A stretch of 50,514 bases of DNA from a virus (Duplodnaviria > Heunggongvirae > Uroviricota > Caudoviricetes): the IMG/VR virus record IMGVR_UViG_2534681773_000022. One strand, written 5' to 3'. Shown piece by piece: positions 1,422 to 13,753 of this stretch; the stretch's first letter is position 1; each line of letters starts with the position of its first letter. A program made the translations under genes and the position numbers. The notes beneath the pieces were generated by a model that was given only the letters and a program-made list of their open reading frames with translations, did not search any database and had not been told where the DNA came from.

Positions 1422-3893
1422 TTAAAAATCAGCCTGATTCGGGATCAGTTTTTGCCAGATAACTGAAACGTATTTTGCCTGGTAACGGGCGTCATCAAGT
1501 GCATTATGGCGCTCACCTTCGAATGGAATAGCCGTTCTGGCATCGAAGTCTATGGCTTTCCCCAGCTCAACGATTGTGCGTACATCGCGATCGTTGTAGT
1601 AACGCCACGGGCAGGGGATCCCCTGCCGTTCGTATGAACGGCGCAAAATCGTGTTGTCGAAGTTGGCTCCATTTCCCCAGACCTGAACAAAAAATTCACC
1701 GGAGTTTTCGTCGATAAATTCCCGCAATTGTAACAGTGCATCATCTAACGGGATTTCATCGGTCATAATGGCAGACTGCGCTTCACGTGATTGCTTCAGC
1801 CACCTTTTAATGACGTCACGATCAATGACTCCGCCAGCAGTTTCCAGATCGATAGTCTTACTAAATTCCGGTCCCATATCTCCGGTTTGCGGATCGAAAA
1901 ATATTGCACCTATTGAGATAATCGGGGCATCAGGATTTTTTCCCATGGTTTCAAGGTCGATCATTAGATGGTCACACGTCCTGCTGGTGGATGTGATAAC
2001 GTGATGACCGTTCATCGTAATTAAGGGATCTGCCGTCTCGCCAGTTTCACTATCGCTGGCGTGATCCTGAGCGCTACCAGCATTCTCCTTGTGTGGATGT
2101 TCAGCGCCTTCCATTTCCTTCGGATCATTTTCCTGAACTTCAACCTGATTCTCTTCATCGAATGTTTCCTGGTATGTTGCGTCACCCATCACCGCGCCAC
2201 AATCAGGGCAGTTGCCGCCACCGCTTTGACCGCAGGCGGTGCAGACTTTTTCCGGTTCCTGTTGCGCTACTGGCTCAGGTTGTTTCGTTTCTGGCTCGTT
2301 TTGTTGCGTATTTGGGCTGTTTTGTTCCGCTTTCTGGTCGTTCTGTTCCGATTCTTGCTGGTTCTGGTTTACAGAATCGCGGGTTTCAATCCCCTTTACC
2401 CATTTCGGATCATTCGGGTCGCTAATCCCTGCAACAAATTCTCCGCGAGAGGCAGCAAGCAACTTATCGGCGTCAGGCTGGCTGATATTGGCTGCCTGCA
2501 TAATTTTGTTTACTTCGTCAGCGGTAACTTTTACCGGCTCTGGTTGTGCGGTCGTGTCAGATGCACCAGTATTTTGTTGTGAACCTGAGTACGTGCCGTT
2601 TTTACGTGCGAAGTATTCCTCTTTTGTGATTTCCGTAGCTCCCAAGGCTAGTGCTTTTTCCAGACCAGAAAGTTTGTTTGCGCGACCGTATTTTTCGCCA
2701 TCCTTGTCGGTGAAGAGGAAGTAGAACGGCCCCTCACGCTCTACAGATGGTTCGACTTCCACTTTGCATTCGGTTTTTTCGTTGCCCGGAATTGCCGTTT
2801 CCACTGCATCAGTTTCTGGTACTGGCGACGAGAGAGTATCAGTTGCGCTCTGATTTCTTCCTTCATCTTCAAACACGCCCTTTGTAGTCAGGTATTCAGT
2901 AATGTATTTGTTCAGTGTCACAGGGTCTTTGTGAATGTCGATCGGACGTTCACGGACAAGGCCAAAAATAGTCTGGCGGTCGTAGCGAAGGGCATCAGGC
3001 TGTTTGCGCATTGATGCCGAGATACGCTTCCAGTCTTCGCGGTCGTTGTCGATAACTTCATTTTTTGCCCAGCGATGGATGCTGCCGTCAATGTTTCCGG
3101 CATCCACATCACCAGGCCAGAGAGCGTAGGCCAGTTCGTCATCCAGTGTTTTCCATGTCTGCTTGTATTCGCGATGAATGGCAGCAATGACCGGGCTGAT
3201 TTTTCCTGTTGAATTTTCACTGTGCTGTTGATTGGTTCTGGCGCGGGCGAGATCAACAACAGACGTGTATTTTCCGGTTTCCTTGCGTTCACCTTCGCGA
3301 CGTTTTTTCCAGATGCGCATCTCTGCCTGAATTTCGGGCCATTTGGCACCAGGCTTACATTTATGCTTAACCCACCCGATGGCATGCAGCTTAAGCTCCG
3401 GATACATGGCGTTAACTTCTGGCATTTTCATCAACGCTTCAACGATATGTCCGTCGAATGTTGCCATGTCTTCCTGCAACAATTCCTGTGCGTTAATAAC
3501 CATATCAACGGTGATGTTTTCACATGTGTCGAACTTAACCATGACAGCGTTCTGTACTTCAGGGGCCAGCTTGTCAAAAGTGACGTTCATCGGATCGGAT
3601 TCAGTCTCAACCGGGACAAAGGAAGCAGACTCCTCATCCCAGCGGTTTTCCTGCATATATTCAGCATCCCAGGAATCGAGGGCAGGGCGGGGTATACCGG
3701 GTTTATCCTCGCAGACAAGAAATTTATAAGCGCAGTCCTGAGCAGCCGGATAATGCTCCAGGAATTGCCAGTGAAATTTTGCGCGGGCGCGACGTTCATC
3801 ACCGGCTTCAATGGCAGTGGCTACAGCGACGGCACCTTCTTCCTTTATTGCCTGTTCGTCCGGAATGGCGGCGCAAATAAAGACTTTACTCAT
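1422..3893 (-). CDS. Large exonuclease with C-terminal DEDDh (DnaQ-like) 3'-5' exonuclease domain
   Basis: 823-aa ORF. The C-terminal domain carries the three DEDDh motifs (IDLETMG; WGNGANFDN; HNALDDARY); a Cys cluster CTACGQSGGGNCPDCG suggests a zinc ribbon; acidic low-complexity middle region. Sits where lambda exo/bet or recET would be. Confidence 0.75.
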   Translation of the reverse strand: MSKVFICAAIPDEQAIKEEGAVAVATAIEAGDERRARAKFHWQFLEHYPAAQDCAYKFLVCEDKPGIPRPALDSWDAEYMQENRWDEESASFVPVETESDPMNVTFDKLAPEVQNAVMVKFDTCENITVDMVINAQELLQEDMATFDGHIVEALMKMPEVNAMYPELKLHAIGWVKHKCKPGAKWPEIQAEMRIWKKRREGERKETGKYTSVVDLARARTNQQHSENSTGKISPVIAAIHREYKQTWKTLDDELAYALWPGDVDAGNIDGSIHRWAKNEVIDNDREDWKRISASMRKQPDALRYDRQTIFGLVRERPIDIHKDPVTLNKYITEYLTTKGVFEDEGRNQSATDTLSSPVPETDAVETAIPGNEKTECKVEVEPSVEREGPFYFLFTDKDGEKYGRANKLSGLEKALALGATEITKEEYFARKNGTYSGSQQNTGASDTTAQPEPVKVTADEVNKIMQAANISQPDADKLLAASRGEFVAGISDPNDPKWVKGIETRDSVNQNQQESEQNDQKAEQNSPNTQQNEPETKQPEPVAQQEPEKVCTACGQSGGGNCPDCGAVMGDATYQETFDEENQVEVQENDPKEMEGAEHPHKENAGSAQDHASDSETGETADPLITMNGHHVITSTSRTCDHLMIDLETMGKNPDAPIISIGAIFFDPQTGDMGPEFSKTIDLETAGGVIDRDVIKRWLKQSREAQSAIMTDEIPLDDALLQLREFIDENSGEFFVQVWGNGANFDNTILRRSYERQGIPCPWRYYNDRDVRTIVELGKAIDFDARTAIPFEGERHNALDDARYQAKYVSVIWQKLIPNQADF

Positions 3894-3985: not shown

Positions 3986-4177
3986 TTAAAGACCTGCCGG
4001 GATTTCGTTATTATCCTGGTGAATAACTTTATCGACCGGGTAACAGTTACCGGGAATTTTCTGTTCGGTTGCTGCAGTCACACACTCCTGCATTGTCCTG
4101 TGAACACTGACTGCAATATCAACTGGCTCTCCGGAAACAAGAAAAACTGTCAGAACAAGTGCAAATGCTGTATTCAT
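3986..4177 (-). CDS. Hypothetical small secreted protein (N-terminal signal-peptide-like segment)
   Basis: ORF starting MNTAFALVLTVFLVSG with AAGGA 8 nt upstream; AT-rich; start overlaps the stop of the upstream gene. Confidence 0.4.
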   Translation of the reverse strand: MNTAFALVLTVFLVSGEPVDIAVSVHRTMQECVTAATEQKIPGNCYPVDKVIHQDNNEIPAGL

Positions 4178-4362
4178 TGCCAGCATCCTTTTTGTATCGG
4201 ACGTAAACGGGCCAGCATTGAAAGAATGCATATTTTATTTAATAGCTCCCGTTCGTGTTTTCTCTTGTTAATGGCTTCTTCAGTAAATACAGGGTTACTG
4301 ATAGTGACACCAATTTCAAAACAACCTTCAGACGTATTAACGTTTGGTAATAACGTTTCCAT
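4174..4362 (-). CDS. Hypothetical small protein
   Basis: 62-aa ORF (METLLPNV...) with GAGGA 8 nt upstream of ATG; translationally coupled to the next gene. Confidence 0.4.
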   Translation of the reverse strand: METLLPNVNTSEGCFEIGVTISNPVFTEEAINKRKHERELLNKICILSMLARLRPIQKGCWQ

Positions 4363-6457: not shown

Positions 6458-6509
6458 TGCTTAATAGTCTCCTATGCGCATCGCGTTAGGCAATCCCTAC
6501 TCTCGATGT

Positions 6510-6581: not shown

Positions 6582-6905
6582 ATGAAAAAAGATAACTATT
6601 CATTCAAACGAGCTTGTGCTGTTGTCGGTGGGCAATCAGCAATGGCTAGGCTTTTAGGTGTATCTCCTCCAAGCGTAAATCAATGGATCAAAGGTGTACG
6701 TCAGTTACCTGCTGAGAGATGTCCTGCGATTGAACGAGCAACAAAAGGTGGTGTCCTGTGTGAAGAACTTCGTCCTGATGTTGATTGGACATACTTACGA
6801 CGCTCGTCATGTTATTCGCAGAATATGTCGATGAAGCAACCAAATGACGAAAACGATCATACCCGAAGCATCAAGAGGCAAATGATTCATGAAAATCAAA
6901 CATGA
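6582..6905 (+). CDS. ydaS: Cro/CI-type HTH regulator, YdaS-like
   Basis: Translation (MKKDNYSFKRACAVVGGQSAMARLLGVSPPSVNQWIKG...) matches the remembered Rac-prophage YdaS; GGAG RBS; first rightward gene. Confidence 0.75.
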   Translation: MKKDNYSFKRACAVVGGQSAMARLLGVSPPSVNQWIKGVRQLPAERCPAIERATKGGVLCEELRPDVDWTYLRRSSCYSQNMSMKQPNDENDHTRSIKRQMIHENQT

Positions 6906-7314
6906 GCACATCCGCATGGCGATGAATGCCTGGGCATACCCTGATGGTGAGAAAGTTCCTGCAGCTGAAATAGCCCGGACTTATTTCGAACTGGGGATGA
7001 CGTTCCCTGAACTGTACGACGACAGCCATCCGGAAGCCCTGGCCCGTAATACCCAGAAAATTTTCCGTTGGCTGGATAAAGACACCCCTGATGCTGTTGA
7101 AAAAATGCAGGCTCTGTTACCGGCGATCGAAAAGGCGATGCCGCCTTTGCTGGTGGCCCGTATGCGCAGCCACAGTTCTGAATATTACCGTGAGATCGTC
7201 GAACGGAGGGATCGGCTGGTGAAGGATGTCGATGATTTTGTTGCGTCAGCGGTTGTTTTGTATGACCAGATGAATCGCGGCGGCCCGGCAGGGAATGCTG
7301 TGGTGATGCACTAA
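6889..7314 (+). CDS. ydaT: YdaT-like protein (CII-like regulator / putative toxin partner of YdaS)
   Basis: 141-aa ORF beginning MKIKHEHI, overlapping the end of ydaS; matches the remembered Rac YdaT N-terminus and length. Confidence 0.7.
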   Translation: MKIKHEHIRMAMNAWAYPDGEKVPAAEIARTYFELGMTFPELYDDSHPEALARNTQKIFRWLDKDTPDAVEKMQALLPAIEKAMPPLLVARMRSHSSEYYREIVERRDRLVKDVDDFVASAVVLYDQMNRGGPAGNAVVMH

Positions 7315-12239: not shown

Positions 12240-12307
12240 GAGACCTGGCGGGGGAGAAATCCCTCGCCACCTCTGATGTGTCAGGCATCCTCAACGCACC
12301 CGCACTT

Positions 12308-12336
12308 AACCCGCTTCGGCGGGTTTTGTTCTTTTT
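12308..12336 (+). terminator. Intrinsic terminator of the hok mRNA (CCCGC-TTCG-GCGGG hairpin + T-tract)
   Basis: GC stem with a UUCG loop followed by TTTTGTTCTTTTT; the preceding bases pair with the mRNA 5' end. Confidence 0.7.
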
Positions 12337-12379
12337 GTGAAAAAAATTCCCTTAAAGGAGATTTTTTTAACTAAAAAGG

Positions 12380-12407
12380 TTTACTTTGCTTTCGTATATG
12401 GTAAATT
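12380..12407 (+). promoter_or_regulatory. Candidate promoter of the XRE/ImmA operon (-35 TTTACT, extended -10 TGgTAAATT)
   Basis: Extended -10 TG-n-TAAATT at 12399-12407 with a -35-like hexamer 16 bp upstream; the same GGTAAAT motif recurs at the PR'-like promoter. Confidence 0.4.
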
Positions 12408-12483
12408 TTAGGAATTAGAATTTAAGCGCCCATCAGGCTTGCGTTAGGCAAGTCTGCTAAATCAACAAATTGAGGATAAAATC

Positions 12484-12843
12484 ATGGCACTCACTGAATT
12501 CGGTAAGGCCGTTAGAAAAGCGAGGATCGATACTGACAGTACTCTTCTGACTATGTCTCAAGAACTGGGCACTACGCCAGCGTTTCTTAGCGGTTTAGAA
12601 ACTGGTAGCAAAAAAATACCTCTGAAGTGGGTTAAGAAGATTGATTCTTACTTCAAGGCCAAAGGTGTAGAAATTGAAGGGTTACAGGAGTTAGCGGCAG
12701 TTGCGAATGACTCAGTTCCAGTAAACGGTTTGTCTCAGCAACAGAAAATGCTTGTAGCGGGATTCGCTAAGTCGCAGTTTACGCCGGAACAGCTAAAGAG
12801 TTTTGCAGATTTATTGCAAAAGATTAATAACAATGAGGGGTAA
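12484..12843 (+). CDS. XRE-family helix-turn-helix transcriptional regulator
   Basis: 119-aa ORF with an N-terminal HTH (LTMSQELGTTPAFLSGLETG); followed 2 bp later by a metallopeptidase gene. Confidence 0.7.
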   Translation: MALTEFGKAVRKARIDTDSTLLTMSQELGTTPAFLSGLETGSKKIPLKWVKKIDSYFKAKGVEIEGLQELAAVANDSVPVNGLSQQQKMLVAGFAKSQFTPEQLKSFADLLQKINNNEG

Positions 12844-12845
12844 TT

Positions 12846-13322
12846 ATGTATCAAATGAGAGGTAACAGGGTGTCACCGATGCAAGAAGAAGAAATAGCCT
12901 ACAGAGCTATAAACTTCTGTAATGCTATTGGTCTTACAGCCTCAAAGCGCAAAAGAAAGCGTTATGATATGTTCTTTGAAAGCCTGTCAATTTATGGGGT
13001 TACTCTTGACGTCAGGACCGACAAAGAGTGGGAGGCTCTGACGTATGATCTAACTATCGGACATTGTGACCCCGCTTCTCTAACAATTACGGTTCCCAAT
13101 AAAATATATGTGAATGCTTGCCTTGGGGAAGAGCATGCACTTGCTGTTATCTTCCACGAGCTAGGTCATTTGCTTCTTGGACACAAAGCAGTTTTACACT
13201 TTTCAGTTAAAGAACCTACTCGTATTGAGGATGCAGAATGGCAGGCAGATACATTTGCGGATATCGTACTGGAAACAATTGGCGTGAGAACACAACAGAT
13301 GTCGTTCGATTTTTATATGTAA
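12846..13322 (+). CDS. ImmA/IrrE-type zinc metallopeptidase (HEXXH motif)
   Basis: 158-aa ORF with HELGHLLLGH, the size and motif context of COG2856 peptidases that pair with XRE regulators. Confidence 0.65.
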   Translation: MYQMRGNRVSPMQEEEIAYRAINFCNAIGLTASKRKRKRYDMFFESLSIYGVTLDVRTDKEWEALTYDLTIGHCDPASLTITVPNKIYVNACLGEEHALAVIFHELGHLLLGHKAVLHFSVKEPTRIEDAEWQADTFADIVLETIGVRTQQMSFDFYM

Positions 13323-13346
13323 AAGCCCTGCGCTAACAGGGCTTTT
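13321..13346 (+). terminator. Intrinsic terminator after the peptidase gene
   Basis: AGCCCTG-cgctaa-CAGGGCT hairpin followed by TTTT. Confidence 0.6.
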
Positions 13347-13489
13347 AGGGACGGAAAGTGCGCTAACACATTCCGTAGTGTATGGAGATAATCCAATCAC
13401 AACACTTTTTGTAGACAAGCGAAGTGTAGTGGTTCTCCCAACAAAGTGCAACCTGTGTGGATTCACAGGTGAGCAGGGAAAACGAAATC

Positions 13490-13639
13490 ATGGCAATGGG
13501 TACCTGTCGCAAATGTGGCTGTCCATGTGAGATCATTTTTCGCTACTCTGTGTGTGTAGATGGTGTAATGCGCCACGCGAAAAAAGGGAAGCCTTTCCCG
13601 ATCCCACTTTGCAGTTGTAGTGGCAAGCACGCAGCTTGA
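13490..13639 (+). CDS. Hypothetical small cysteine-rich protein (49 aa; CxxC...CxC, probably metal-binding)
   Basis: ORF with seven Cys in 49 residues, followed by a terminator identical in hairpin to the hok terminator; RBS is weak. Confidence 0.3.
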   Translation: MAMGTCRKCGCPCEIIFRYSVCVDGVMRHAKKGKPFPIPLCSCSGKHAA

Positions 13640-13655
13640 TATTCAGTACTGACAA

Positions 13656-13682
13656 AACCCGCTTCGGCGGGTTTTGTTTTTC
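13656..13682 (+). terminator. Intrinsic terminator (CCCGC-TTCG-GCGGG + T-tract), second copy of the hok-terminator hairpin
   Basis: AACCCGCTTCGGCGGGTTTTGTT is identical to 12308-12330. Confidence 0.65.
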
Positions 13683-13753
13683 TTGGCATTCAGGTTTACA
13701 ATTCGCACGTCAGCCTGAACAACTGGCACCTGCTGCGCCAGCAGAGAAAGACG

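Follow-up and report, generated by a model that had tools for sequence, protein, structure and literature searches.

Few two-gene modules are as common in phages and islands as the pair of an XRE-family regulator and an M78 peptidase. One such pair lies in an E. coli prophage, in a 50.5-kb stretch of DNA analysed here as a whole and referred to as the window, and the question that it raises is which gene it controls. A sequence-only reading of the window had described the pair as a regulatory circuit of its own and had named two candidate targets, the hok locus and an adjacent 49-aa Cys-rich open reading frame (ORF). The analysis below points to the latter, which is preceded by a conserved RNA leader.

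Results

A three-gene cassette inserted behind the hokD terminator

The pair belongs to a mobile cassette of ~1.35 kb (12331-13678; Table 1), which is a single indel whose three genes move jointly and whose flanks are copies of a 23-bp repeat, the hokD terminator. The left copy of the repeat is terminator-like in a terminator scan, and the right copy (13656-13678) lies inside the terminator of the cassette. Among 5426 E. coli genomes the site was filled in 48 and empty in 2633, the empty site being contiguous and carrying a single copy of the repeat. Carriers include E. coli O55:H7 RM12579, in which the cassette lies near 1,738,400, and FDAARGOS_536. The neighbours are hokD, a 92-aa phrog_1212 ORF, DUF968 and RusA, and the placement of the pair between hok and DUF968 was confirmed by Pfam matches on both flanks (hok PF01848, 81.6 bits; DUF968, 256.7 bits). 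The immunity region of the prophage is separate and lies ~5 kb upstream, in agreement with the earlier view of a self-contained unit apart from that region. Because the insert is downstream of the hokD terminator, and because the 2633 genomes with an empty site have hokD there without the cassette, hok had to be dropped as the target.

The cassette is patchily distributed, in prophage accessory regions and in satellite regions adjoining integrases. Neighbours counted by targeted tblastn for umuC, dinI and yedK placed umuDC, yedK and dinI within 6 kb of 7, 5 and 11 loci, respectively, one Pseudomonas locus included.

Table 1. Features of the cassette and its left edge (positions in the window)
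Feature	Position	Strand	Description
Direct repeat, left copy	12308-12330	+	AACCCGCTTCGGCGGGTTTTGTT, 23 bp; hokD terminator; left edge of insert
Operator-like palindrome	12368-12381	.	TAACTAAAAAGGTT, consensus TTAACCAAAWWGGTTRAA; overlaps -35; presumed XRE binding site
Promoter-like element	12380-12407	+	-35 TTTACT 12380-12385, 16-nt spacer, -10 TAAATT 12402-12407
XRE-family HTH protein gene	12484-12843	+	119 aa; N-terminal HTH and conserved C-terminal region
M78 (ImmA/IrrE-type) zinc metallopeptidase gene	12846-13322	+	158 aa; peptidase domain only
Leader hairpin H1	13321-13346	+	AAAAGCCCTG / loop CGCTAA 13331-13336 / CAGGGCTTTT; overlaps peptidase stop codon
Leader hairpin H2	13351-13376	+	ACGGAAAGTG / loop CGCTAA 13361-13366 / CACATTCCGT
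Leader hairpin H3	13384-13438	+	Long, imperfect; closed by invariant GGAG(A/G)...UCUCC; (C)UUGACA-like apex conserved
Leader hairpin H4	13451-13470	+	ACCTGTG / TGGATT / CACAGGT; loop UGGRUU conserved
Micro-protein gene	13490-13639	+	49 aa, MAMGTCRKCGCPCEIIFRYSVCVDGVMRHAKKGKPFPIPLCSCSGKHAA; CxxC...CxC zinc-ribbon-like, Cys-rich
Intrinsic terminator of cassette	13651-13684	+	12-bp stem and T-run

The putative repressor-peptidase pair and its promoter-like element

The HTH ORF ends in TAA and is followed, after a gap of 2 nt, by the co-directional peptidase ORF with its HELGHLLLGH motif, all at the coordinates noted earlier. The predicted zinc site (HExxH plus a downstream Glu) is intact: H104, E105, H108, E128 and E131 are invariant in 23 peptidase homologues, down to 37% identity, and the E128/E131-W-Q-A-D motif, which reads EDAEWQAD here, is invariant alongside H104-E105-x-x-H108. 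The protein matched Pfam Peptidase_M78 (PF06114, 24.6 bits vs a cut-off of 22) and PHROG 87 'metallo-protease' (E 7e-17). Its AF2 model (pLDDT 86, pTM 0.83) shows the peptidase domain alone, with no recognisable sensor domain, and its fold appears IrrE-like at modest scores, Foldseek returning selecase (E 0.005), PprI (8sln, TMq 0.49), an M. tuberculosis XRE-peptidase regulator (6cyy, TMq 0.48) and IrrE (3dti, TMq 0.44). CapP was the best PDB sequence match (7t5t, E 0.025) and was also matched by PADLOC (capP, E 0.0035). The 158-aa start is preferable to the 147-aa call of RefSeq, since homologues out to Neisseria share the additional N-terminal sequence, YQMRGNRV. One database labels a Providencia homologue 'toxin'.

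The HTH protein, with a mean column identity of 68% over 10 orthologues, carries the conserved C-terminal stretch GLSxQQQMLVAGFAKSPFTPEELKxFA. Pfam gave a weak match below the cut-off (HTH_31, E 0.017), and a profile of the 10 orthologues matched solved XRE-type regulators (E 5e-5 to 8e-4), ClgR and the 129-aa regulator 9sf2 among them; PADLOC returned HTH_VI (E 1e-6) and capH (E 0.0097). By analogy with related pairs, the HTH protein is presumed to be both repressor and peptidase substrate. The family matches and the intact catalytic motif uphold the assignment to the XRE and COG2856/M78 pairs of the ImmR/ImmA, DdrO/IrrE and CapH/CapP kind. As a module the pair is unremarkable and already has a name in RefSeq.

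The promoter-like element that had been attributed to the pair is present and conserved in position across 17 loci (equivalents TTGAAT/TTGATT ... TAAAAT/TAATAT/TAAATT), though it matches only 8 of 12 consensus positions and was not called by a scan with a cut-off of 9 of 12. The palindrome overlapping it keeps its position in 17 loci, which represent at least 8 genera, and its pattern, TWACYWWWWWRGTW, has a single match in the 50.5-kb window vs 0.04 expected. The XRE protein is presumed to bind this putative operator over its own -35 sequence. Since the palindrome is unique in the window, it does not recur in 13350-13490, for which a second XRE site had been suggested earlier; the operator-like sequence lies only at the cassette's own promoter.

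These features bear on whether the pair acts as a classical immunity switch governing induction or excision of the carrier prophage, as its protein families, which are those of ICEBs1 ImmR/ImmA, and its location in a prophage might suggest. We consider such a role highly improbable, given the separate immunity region, the prophage backbone that occurs without the cassette in 2633 genomes, the position of the cassette among late-region accessory genes (hokD on one side, DUF968/rusA/Q on the other), and a window with neither a divergent promoter nor a second operator.

A conserved micro-protein gene downstream of the peptidase

In a set of 38 species-representative loci spanning gamma- and beta-proteobacteria, a micro-ORF was found on the same strand and within 1 kb downstream of a short M78 relative in 37, and 11 of these micro-ORF-bearing loci lay outside profile building; in 33 of the 38 the orthologue is 130-250 nt 3' of the peptidase gene. 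Its dN/dS is about 0.01-0.1, and between the window and locus L017, 21 of 23 nucleotide differences fall at third codon positions (dN 0.017, dS 1.68). By its substitution pattern the micro-ORF is a real gene under purifying selection and, together with its recurrence after the peptidase, this makes the Cys-rich ORF the likely controlled gene, as had been suggested. Of the 61 E. coli genomes with this ORF, most have no RefSeq annotation for it.

The encoded protein has the core motif IFRxxxxxxGxxIxxxxGKPFxIP and is Lys/Arg-rich, basic and soluble-looking, without a hydrophobic stretch; its AF2 model is all-beta (pLDDT 79). It matched no Pfam, NCBIfam or PHROG family, and a whole-database search for the family returned only 16 members. 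Homology between this type and the phrog_21154-type micro-ORF was undetected (probability 0.2%). From its size and charge, our guess is that the micro-protein binds nucleic acid. The sequence-only reading had also credited the pair with its own terminator; a strong terminator is present after the micro-ORF, and we regard it as ending all three genes together and not the pair, because the hairpin that directly follows the peptidase gene is predicted to terminate poorly in the rightward direction.

A structured leader RNA between the peptidase and the micro-ORF

The ~170 nt between the two genes form a structured plus-strand RNA with four hairpins (H1-H4) supported by covariation. Across H1-H4, 88.7% of cells are paired, vs 31-50% in slid controls, with 15 covarying pairs, and none of 500 shuffles gave an equally good structure. 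The ratio of G-U to A-C cells was 104 to 5 in the RNAalifold consensus and 63 to 32 in the manual H1-H4 structure, counts that favour the plus strand and led us to reject a functional leader RNA on the minus strand. Rfam 15 gave no match on 13321-13492 at E up to 10, and no Rfam gathering score was reached in 11 related loci.

In H1, 90% of cells are paired. Averaged over 41 elements, the 8 nt that precede it include 4.9 A and the 8 nt that follow it 2.6 T; five T are reached in 4 of the 41 elements on the plus strand vs 30 of the 41 on the minus strand, so that it is probably a weak rightward but a good leftward terminator. In H2, compensatory changes occur in 7 of 9 pairs, and 18 G-U vs 6 A-C cells again favour the plus strand. 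H3 is illustrated by its pair 81/115 (GC 12, AU 7, GU 3); its UCUCC arm can alternatively pair with the Shine-Dalgarno region of the micro-ORF, and the minimum free energy fold of the window sequence takes the alternative UUCUCCC:GGGAAAA pairing. Four of the seven pairs of H4 covary, with 17 G-U vs 1 A-C cells.

In enterobacteria H4 also reads CTGT-N8-ACAG and so resembles a LexA box. With a matrix built from 21 sites, it scored 12.3, the third-highest value in the window, against a minimum of 12.9 and a median of 20.6 among the training sites, and the Stx-type leader has a second, better LexA-like box over the ribosome binding site (16.7); no clear promoter accompanies these boxes. Promoter-like matches in the leader numbered 2 vs 2.3 expected. 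A sigma-70 promoter within it was rejected, the only 9-of-12 matches being specific to the window and unconserved, and neither the promoter scan nor inspection of the alignment by eye revealed a conserved promoter on either strand.

Matched loops in H1 and H2

Within any one element the loop of H1 matches that of H2, and the matched sequence varies from element to element. This rule applies to 36 of 41 elements, vs 5 of 611 controls; in the window both loops read CGCTAA. Ten matched loop types were obtained by count in these 36 elements and six more by eye, giving at least 16. Most twin loops are 6 nt long, both orientations occur, and the arms of H1 and H2 differ. To our knowledge, no bacterial RNA element with an identical, co-varying pair of loops has been described.

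Several candidate partners of the loops were considered and rejected. A search for a partner complementary to the loops within 2.5 kb on either side found no consistent position in 27 loci. Kissing between the twin loops (CUAAC) and the loop of a hairpin in the XRE 5' untranslated region (GUUAG, 12438-12452) fits the window and fails in loci L003 and L017. Near-identical micro-proteins accompany different loops, and the same loop accompanies unrelated upstream genes, which disfavours the micro-protein, the peptidase, the XRE protein or an upstream gene as a loop-specific partner. Nor are the loops boxB sites for a resident N protein, the P22-like nutL boxB of the Stx1 phage (GCGCUGACAAAGCGC) being unrelated to them. 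Judged from the sequences alone, tyrosine-recombinase core sites, integron attC sites, CRISPR repeats and anticodon-loop or T-box mimicry all fit poorly in view of the differing arms, the prevailing loop length of 6 nt and the presence of both orientations.

The leader and micro-ORF as a separable unit

In several other settings the leader and micro-ORF lack the pair. They follow cI-DUF3024-phrog_2602 in Stx1 phages, a three-gene HTH operon, or hicAB and a 146-aa gene, and they also stand alone. They occur, too, as two tandem H1-to-ORF units. The unit is therefore expressible in other regimes, and it may have control of its own.

This modularity is the starting point of a rival explanation, in which the leader and micro-ORF would be an autonomous mini-cassette lodged at the 3' ends of other operons, insulated by H1 from upstream transcription and expressed from a weak promoter inside the unit. 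Control would be exerted by LexA at H4 and/or by a leftward antisense RNA that crosses the leader and stops at H1, and the XRE-peptidase pair would regulate itself only. The matched loops would then be the recognition code of the antisense RNA, like plasmid incompatibility loops. The four unrelated upstream gene sets and the solitary and tandem copies agree with this arrangement, as do the use of the same leader before two unrelated micro-protein families, the much better performance predicted for H1 as a minus-strand terminator, the LexA-like boxes of H4 and the Stx type, a 9-of-12 promoter-like site in the window (13462-13491) whose -35 lies inside H4, and a loop diversity among near-identical elements that resembles diversifying selection. 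However, the leader has no conserved promoter on either strand; Rheinheimera and more distant members keep the H4 loop and not its CTGT/ACAG arms, and the G-rich centre is atypical for LexA; the G-U wobble favours a sense-strand fold; and lodging by itself would hardly account for a micro-ORF that accompanies the short M78 gene at 37 of 38 loci. On balance we consider the mini-cassette fairly unlikely.

Discussion

Comparison with known systems

The cassette resembles ICEBs1 ImmR/ImmA of B. subtilis in its adjacent, co-directional genes with the HTH gene first, its residence on a mobile element, its presumed autorepression and its short, single-domain HExxH peptidase, ImmA-type peptidases being ~160-170 aa long. 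It differs in lacking a link to int/xis or to the immunity region of the element, in its single operator, in its conserved third gene and structured leader, and in being proteobacterial and only distantly related in sequence (24.6 bits in Pfam). In DdrO/IrrE of Deinococcus and in CapH/CapP of CBASS-type immune operons, an XRE repressor is cleaved by an M78 peptidase after DNA damage; CapP is the best PDB sequence match of our peptidase, PprI/IrrE are among its best fold matches, and DNA-damage genes are frequent near cassette loci. Unlike those systems, the cassette has neither a repair-gene regulon nor an adjacent immune operon, and its output would be a 49-aa protein. CapP combines the peptidase with an HTH and a C-terminal GAF domain and has an ssDNA-binding inter-domain groove (bioRxiv 10.64898/2026.05.16.725639). 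IrrE likewise carries HTH and GAF domains, by which both proteins sense ssDNA, and the cassette peptidase has neither, so the CapH/CapP likeness that had been drawn holds for the kind of pair and stops short of domain architecture and of an adjoining immune operon.

A further possibility is a three-component toxin-antitoxin or abortive-infection module with a prophage defence or addiction function, in which the micro-protein or the peptidase would be toxic, the XRE protein would act both as antitoxin and as repressor, and phage infection would lead to its proteolysis and so free the toxin. Small-toxin mRNAs typically have a tightly structured 5' leader with the capacity to sequester the Shine-Dalgarno sequence, and the leader described here is structured and can do the same. 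Xre-COG2856 pairs have been predicted as toxin-antitoxin systems, with a three-component version proposed (PMC2701414), and the E. coli defence system PD-lambda-2 includes a toxic Xre-peptidase fusion (PMC9519451). Like these, the cassette is mobile and patchy, in accessory and integrase-adjoining satellite regions, and joins a protease, an HTH protein and a third component; its architecture would be compatible with a type II system. The name given to the Providencia homologue, and the position of the Stx1-phage unit after the PADLOC defence candidate PDC-S43, point the same way. In the known systems, however, a RelE, PIN or HigB toxin fills the third place, and HTH-peptidase fusions are frequent; the cassette encodes the two proteins separately and has, in third place, a micro-protein from an unmodelled family, preceded by an RNA leader. 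The PADLOC matches are only weak (E 0.001-0.01), and the nearby umuDC, dinI and yedK genes indicate a DNA-damage context and not a defence island. Type I toxins are small hydrophobic membrane proteins, and the micro-protein, basic and soluble-looking with an all-beta model, is unlike them. A toxin-antitoxin module is, in our judgement, distinctly unlikely.

With type I systems such as hok the cassette shares a long folded leader, the potential to sequester the Shine-Dalgarno sequence and a gene of ~50 codons, and with CopA/CopT and RNAI/RNAII, where loop sequences set antisense specificity, it shares hairpin loops that vary between close relatives. It differs from both in its non-hydrophobic protein and in that no antisense promoter was found; H1 would serve an antisense gene over the leader as a good terminator, and no conserved minus-strand promoter was seen. 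Two identical loops on one strand are, as far as we know, not a feature of hok-type, CopA/CopT or RNAI/RNAII systems.

A proposed peptidase-released operon

The explanation that we prefer, and to which we give about an even chance, is an operon that represses itself and is released by the peptidase. Its output would be the micro-protein, whose gene RNA polymerase would reach by reading through a weak hairpin. Promoter and operator, XRE repressor, M78 peptidase, structured leader, micro-protein gene and terminator would form a single transcription unit. In a resting lysogen, an XRE dimer on the palindrome over its own -35 would hold the operon low. A stress signal, for which ImmR/ImmA, DdrO/IrrE and CapH/CapP make DNA damage or infection the likeliest candidates, would let the peptidase cleave the repressor in its conserved C-terminal region, as homology suggests. 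Transcription would rise, and RNA polymerase would pass H1, which has a good stem followed by only 2-4 U. The leader would then decide whether the micro-ORF is translated, since the UCUCC arm of H3 has two possible partners, GGAG(G/A) on its 5' side and the Shine-Dalgarno region, and the effector would be a basic, beta-rich zinc-ribbon micro-protein.

Gene order and spacing, the intact HExxH and Glu, and the M78 family and fold speak for this operon, as do the one-indel cassette, the downstream micro-ORF in 37 of 38 loci with its low dN/dS, and the umuDC, yedK and dinI genes near the loci. The single operator-like palindrome, conserved over the -35 in 17 loci, the shortage of T behind H1 (fewer than five in 37 of 41 elements), the lack of any promoter excess in the leader and its conserved plus-strand structure are consistent with it. 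On the other side, the strong H1 hairpin might terminate more than its U-tract suggests, H4 resembles a LexA box, the leader and micro-ORF are also found apart from the pair, and the peptidase has no recognisable sensor domain.

The leader structure, the twin-loop rule and the modular spread of leader and micro-ORF go beyond the sequence-only reading and are new here. Tentatively, and as a possibility short of probable, the leader may represent a novel kind of cis-acting RNA device. Matched, freely evolvable H1/H2 loops of 6-9 nt would be read by a self-templated or dimeric partner and would gate a new family of ~35-50-aa effectors, the family-specific output of short ImmA-like switches in proteobacterial mobile elements. 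Candidates for the partner include an antisense RNA that stops at H1 and an RNA-binding factor with a symmetric structure.

For a widespread kind of switch, the output of one pair appears to be defined, as a micro-protein overlooked by gene callers. With three genes and one operator in 1.35 kb, the cassette offers a concrete and very small system in which to follow signal, cleavage and effect. If the twin loops are a specificity code, they would give mobile elements a novel means of insulating or addressing small genes.

Insertion of the cassette at the hokD terminator

Both genes of the XRE-peptidase pair travel with the intergenic region and the micro-ORF as a single unit. Of 5426 complete E. 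coli genomes, just 48 have the whole 1.45-kb region, whereas 2633 match without a break a synthetic query for the empty site, in which the hokD terminator runs straight on into the bases past 13680; empty alleles outnumber filled ones about 55 to 1. The inserted segment (approximately 12331-13678) is flanked by a 23-bp direct repeat, AACCCGCTTCGGCGGGTTTTGTT (12308-12330 and 13656-13678), which is the hokD terminator and which suggests that the cassette is gained or lost through recombination at terminator hairpins. Because of the empty site and this repeat, hok, which the sequence-only reading had named as a possible target, is a pre-existing neighbour outside the circuit. A sub-threshold match to Rfam isrK directly downstream of hokD (12248-12329; 27 bits against a gathering score of 50, E 0.002) is probably due to the 3′ region of hok together with its terminator. 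The separation of the circuit from the prophage's own repressor, proposed in the same reading, agrees with the annotated twin locus, in which the prophage immunity region lies ~5 kb upstream of the cassette; that the cassette is itself a true immunity switch is highly improbable.

Features of the cassette and its control regions (window coordinates)
Feature	Position	Strand	Remarks
Operator-like palindrome	12368-12381		matches 17-locus palindrome
-35-like hexamer	12380-12385		conserved placement
-10-like hexamer	12402-12407		conserved placement
XRE-type HTH gene	12484-12843	+	119 aa
Peptidase gene	12846-13322	+	158 aa, HELGHLLLGH; 2 bases past XRE TAA stop
H1	13321-13346	+	23-sequence alignment
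H2	13351-13376	+	23-sequence alignment
H3	13384-13438	+	23-sequence alignment
H4	13451-13470	+	23-sequence alignment
Cys-rich micro-ORF	13490-13639	+	49 aa

The proteins and the putative promoter of the XRE gene

All three ORFs lie exactly where they had been placed from sequence, and the pairing of an XRE regulator with an M78 (ImmA-like) peptidase holds. The peptidase matches Pfam Peptidase_M78 at 24.6 bits (cut-off 22) and PHROG 87 ('metallo-protease') at E 7e-17, and its zinc-site residues H104, E105 and H108, with the E128-D-A-E131-W-Q-A-D block, are invariant among 23 homologues, down to 37% identity. A profile of ten XRE orthologues matches solved XRE-type regulators, the window protein alone giving a weak Pfam match. 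The best solved matches of the AlphaFold peptidase model (pLDDT 86) are selecase, PprI/IrrE and a mycobacterial XRE-peptidase regulator, at TMq 0.44-0.49 and modest E-values. IrrE and CapP bind ssDNA via HTH and GAF domains (bioRxiv 10.64898/2026.05.16.725639), both of which the window peptidase lacks. RefSeq already holds the pair as 'helix-turn-helix domain-containing protein' and 'ImmA/IrrE family metallo-endopeptidase', with a RefSeq/PGAP peptidase start at 12879 (147 aa); the 158-aa product originally proposed is the better reading, because the later start cuts off an N-terminal YQMRGxRV motif (YQMRGNRV in the window) that is kept as far as Neisseria, and because a GAGGGG Shine-Dalgarno precedes 12846.

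Upstream of the XRE gene, 17 loci from Escherichia, Klebsiella, Providencia, Erwinia, Haemophilus, Rheinheimera, Orbaceae, Alteromonas, Vibrio, Pseudoalteromonas and Moraxella have in common a palindrome, TTAACCAAAWWGGTTRAA, which overlaps a -35-like hexamer, with a -10-like hexamer 16-17 nt further on. From this arrangement we infer that the XRE protein represses its own operon. The pattern TWACYWWWWWRGTW has one match in the 50.5-kb window, at the cassette promoter, against 0.04 expected; the repressor would accordingly lack a second site of the same kind near hok or in 13350-13490, where one had been anticipated.

The same trio occurs in two Klebsiella phages. Among 38 species-representative loci encoding a relative of the short peptidase, 37 have a micro-ORF at most 1 kb downstream on the same strand, 11 of the detections being independent of the sequences behind the profiles. 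One micro-protein family is present in 33 of the 37 (two of which carry both families) and a second, PHROG 21154, stands alone in four. Between the window and a Lelliottia locus the micro-ORF has 23 differences, 21 of them third-position (dN 0.017, dS 1.68), and other pairs give dN/dS of ~0.04-0.27: it is a real, widespread gene under strong purifying selection. The gamma-proteobacterial protein carries CxxC...CxC, whereas cysteines are absent from the form in beta-proteobacteria and Pseudomonas, which is nevertheless homologous (HHalign probability 96.3%, E 2e-9) and has the same core, h-I-F-R-x7-G-x2-I-x4-G-K-P-F-x-I, so that what seems essential is the conserved beta-hairpin core, to which the cysteines would add a zinc staple. 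In two Pseudomonas loci (L036 and L037, ~6700-7100) two unlike micro-ORFs lie in tandem past the peptidase, the Cys-free IFR/GKPF type first and a phrog_21154-type CxxC ORF ~250 nt later. A three-component toxin or defence module is an improbable account of the trio.

A structured leader with matched loops

The 167-nt leader that separates the peptidase gene from the micro-ORF is conserved above what the flanking proteins predict, and an alignment of 23 sequences supports four hairpins, H1-H4. In this alignment 88.7% of cells are paired, versus 31-50% with partners slid by 1-3 columns; compensatory changes occur at 15 pairs, 0 of 500 column shuffles equalled the structure, and the window sequence folds with z = -4.2. 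Because G-U pairs outnumber A-C pairs in the RNAalifold consensus (104 vs 5) and per helix in the manual structure (H2, 18 vs 6; H3, 28 vs 15; H4, 17 vs 1), we assign the fold to the plus strand, that of the genes. No Rfam 15 family matched the leader in the window (E up to 10) or, at gathering scores, in eleven related loci. R1, a covariance model built from the leader, scores 175 bits at its single hit in the window and recovers enterobacterial and Rheinheimera members, remoter loci being alike by eye only.

The perfect, G+C-rich stem of H1 starts within the peptidase stop codon. The U-run that follows is short (mean 2.6 T per 8 nt, with at least 5 T in just 4 of 41 elements) and the A-run before the stem long (mean 4.9, reaching 5 in 30 of 41), from which H1 is predicted to terminate transcription poorly in the rightward direction but well in the leftward one. 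Since, in addition, neither alignment nor promoter scan found the leader to contain a conserved promoter, micro-ORF mRNA would arise most simply by read-through from the XRE promoter. Such transcripts would pass H1 and meet H3, whose invariant 3′-side UCUCC can pair with the invariant 5′-side GGAG(G/A) or with the Shine-Dalgarno region, the latter being chosen in the window MFE. This choice of partners looks like a translational gate, although CUCC complementarity is common to any Shine-Dalgarno and beyond the reach of covariation.

H1 and H2 of one element share an identical loop sequence, which differs between elements: CGCUAA in the window and UUGACG, CGUCAA, UUGGCA, CUAGGA(A), CUUCGAA, CUGAGAA, CUCUAA, CUGGAA or UUUGCAG elsewhere. 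The H1 loop is repeated 28-32 nt downstream in 36 of 41 non-redundant elements, against 5 of 611 trials with a loop type borrowed from another element. By eye, the rule extends to Orbaceae (UUUGCGG, UUUACGG), Moraxella (GCUACCAAC), a Neisseria (CUUCCAA), a Pseudomonas (CCGCAAA) and Aquitalea (CGCCAA); a minority of loci, L006, L084 and L153 among them, break it. Gene conversion is an unlikely source, because the H1 and H2 stems are unrelated. Reverse-complement loops occur between lineages (CGUCAA/UUGACG, CGCUAA/UUAGCG, CCGCAAA/UUUGCGG). Loop type tracks none of the micro-protein, the peptidase and the upstream gene, boxB of the resident N protein is ruled out by its unrelated sequence, and no complementary sequence lies at a consistent place within 2.5 kb. 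The candidate partner left is self-templated or symmetric, either an antisense RNA ending at H1, to which the terminator asymmetry alone points, or a dimeric factor encoded elsewhere.

The XRE 5′-UTR contains a hairpin (12438-12452, CTTGC-GTTAG-GCAAG) whose loop is complementary to the twin-loop core CUAAC, a complementarity not kept in other loci; a nearly identical hairpin is found at 6480-6494.

Regulatory settings and a possible signal

In a DNA-pattern scan of viral contigs, leader and micro-ORF lay mostly 3′ of the peptidase gene. In Stx1 phages they follow cI-DUF3024 (PADLOC candidate PDC-S43)-phrog_2602, between cI and N, with a micro-ORF of the PHROG 21154 type, unrelated to that of the window; elsewhere they follow a three-gene operon with an HTH protein, or hicA-hicB and a 146-aa gene adjoining a P4-type integrase, or nothing recognisable. 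Two complete H1-to-ORF units stand in tandem past one peptidase gene in Providencia rustigianii (L004, 6485-7140), their H1 stems differing by compensatory changes and all four loops reading CGCUAA. Given the tandem units and the varied upstream genes, the unit is H1-to-ORF, and it can function under other kinds of control. Autonomous control of leader and micro-ORF, a reading we consider rather unlikely, draws its main argument from this; to the cassette as a single-operon switch we give an even chance. What we say of cleavage, binding, transcription and phenotype we infer.

In Escherichia phage SH2026Stx1 (L084), DUF3024, the phrog_2602 protein, the leader RNA and a 44-aa phrog_21154 ORF occupy 1938-3310 between cI and N, the position of rexAB in lambda; nutL, with boxA GCTCTTTAAC and a P22-like boxB, lies at ~3606-3640. 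In Aquitalea palustris (L034) the trio is preceded, ~2.4 kb upstream, by a type II hammerhead ribozyme (3531-3595; 76 bits against a gathering score of 37).

Within 6 kb of the trio, umuC is found in seven loci, yedK in five and dinI in 11. umuDC, often with yedK (SRAP), adjoins it in enterobacterial elements and Pseudomonas fragariae (L003, L012, L016, L037, L121, L124, L147), the 11 loci with adjacent dinI being others than these; the yedK/trio/umuDC order of a Klebsiella phage recurs in a Pseudomonas locus. Enterobacterial H4 reads CTGT-N8-ACAG and scores 12.3 on a LexA matrix built from 21 sites (training minimum 12.9); a higher-scoring LexA-like box (16.7) covers the ribosome binding site in the Stx type, and distant members conserve the H4 loop, not the arms. 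From these neighbours, the LexA-like boxes and the known behaviour of ImmA, IrrE and CapP, DNA damage would be the most likely trigger. The best LexA-box match in the window, TACTGTAAAAATATCCAGTT (16868-16887; 23.7, above the training median), falls where the DNA-methyltransferase gene of the prophage begins, as placed by offset from the annotated twin locus, and a weaker one, TGCTGTATTCATTGCCAGCA (14.7), lies at 4166-4185.

The XRE and M78 pair adds a member to a type already known; what is new is the combination of three parts in one cassette, whose output appears to be an unmodelled micro-protein family, and the leader RNA in front of the micro-ORF, whose loops match.
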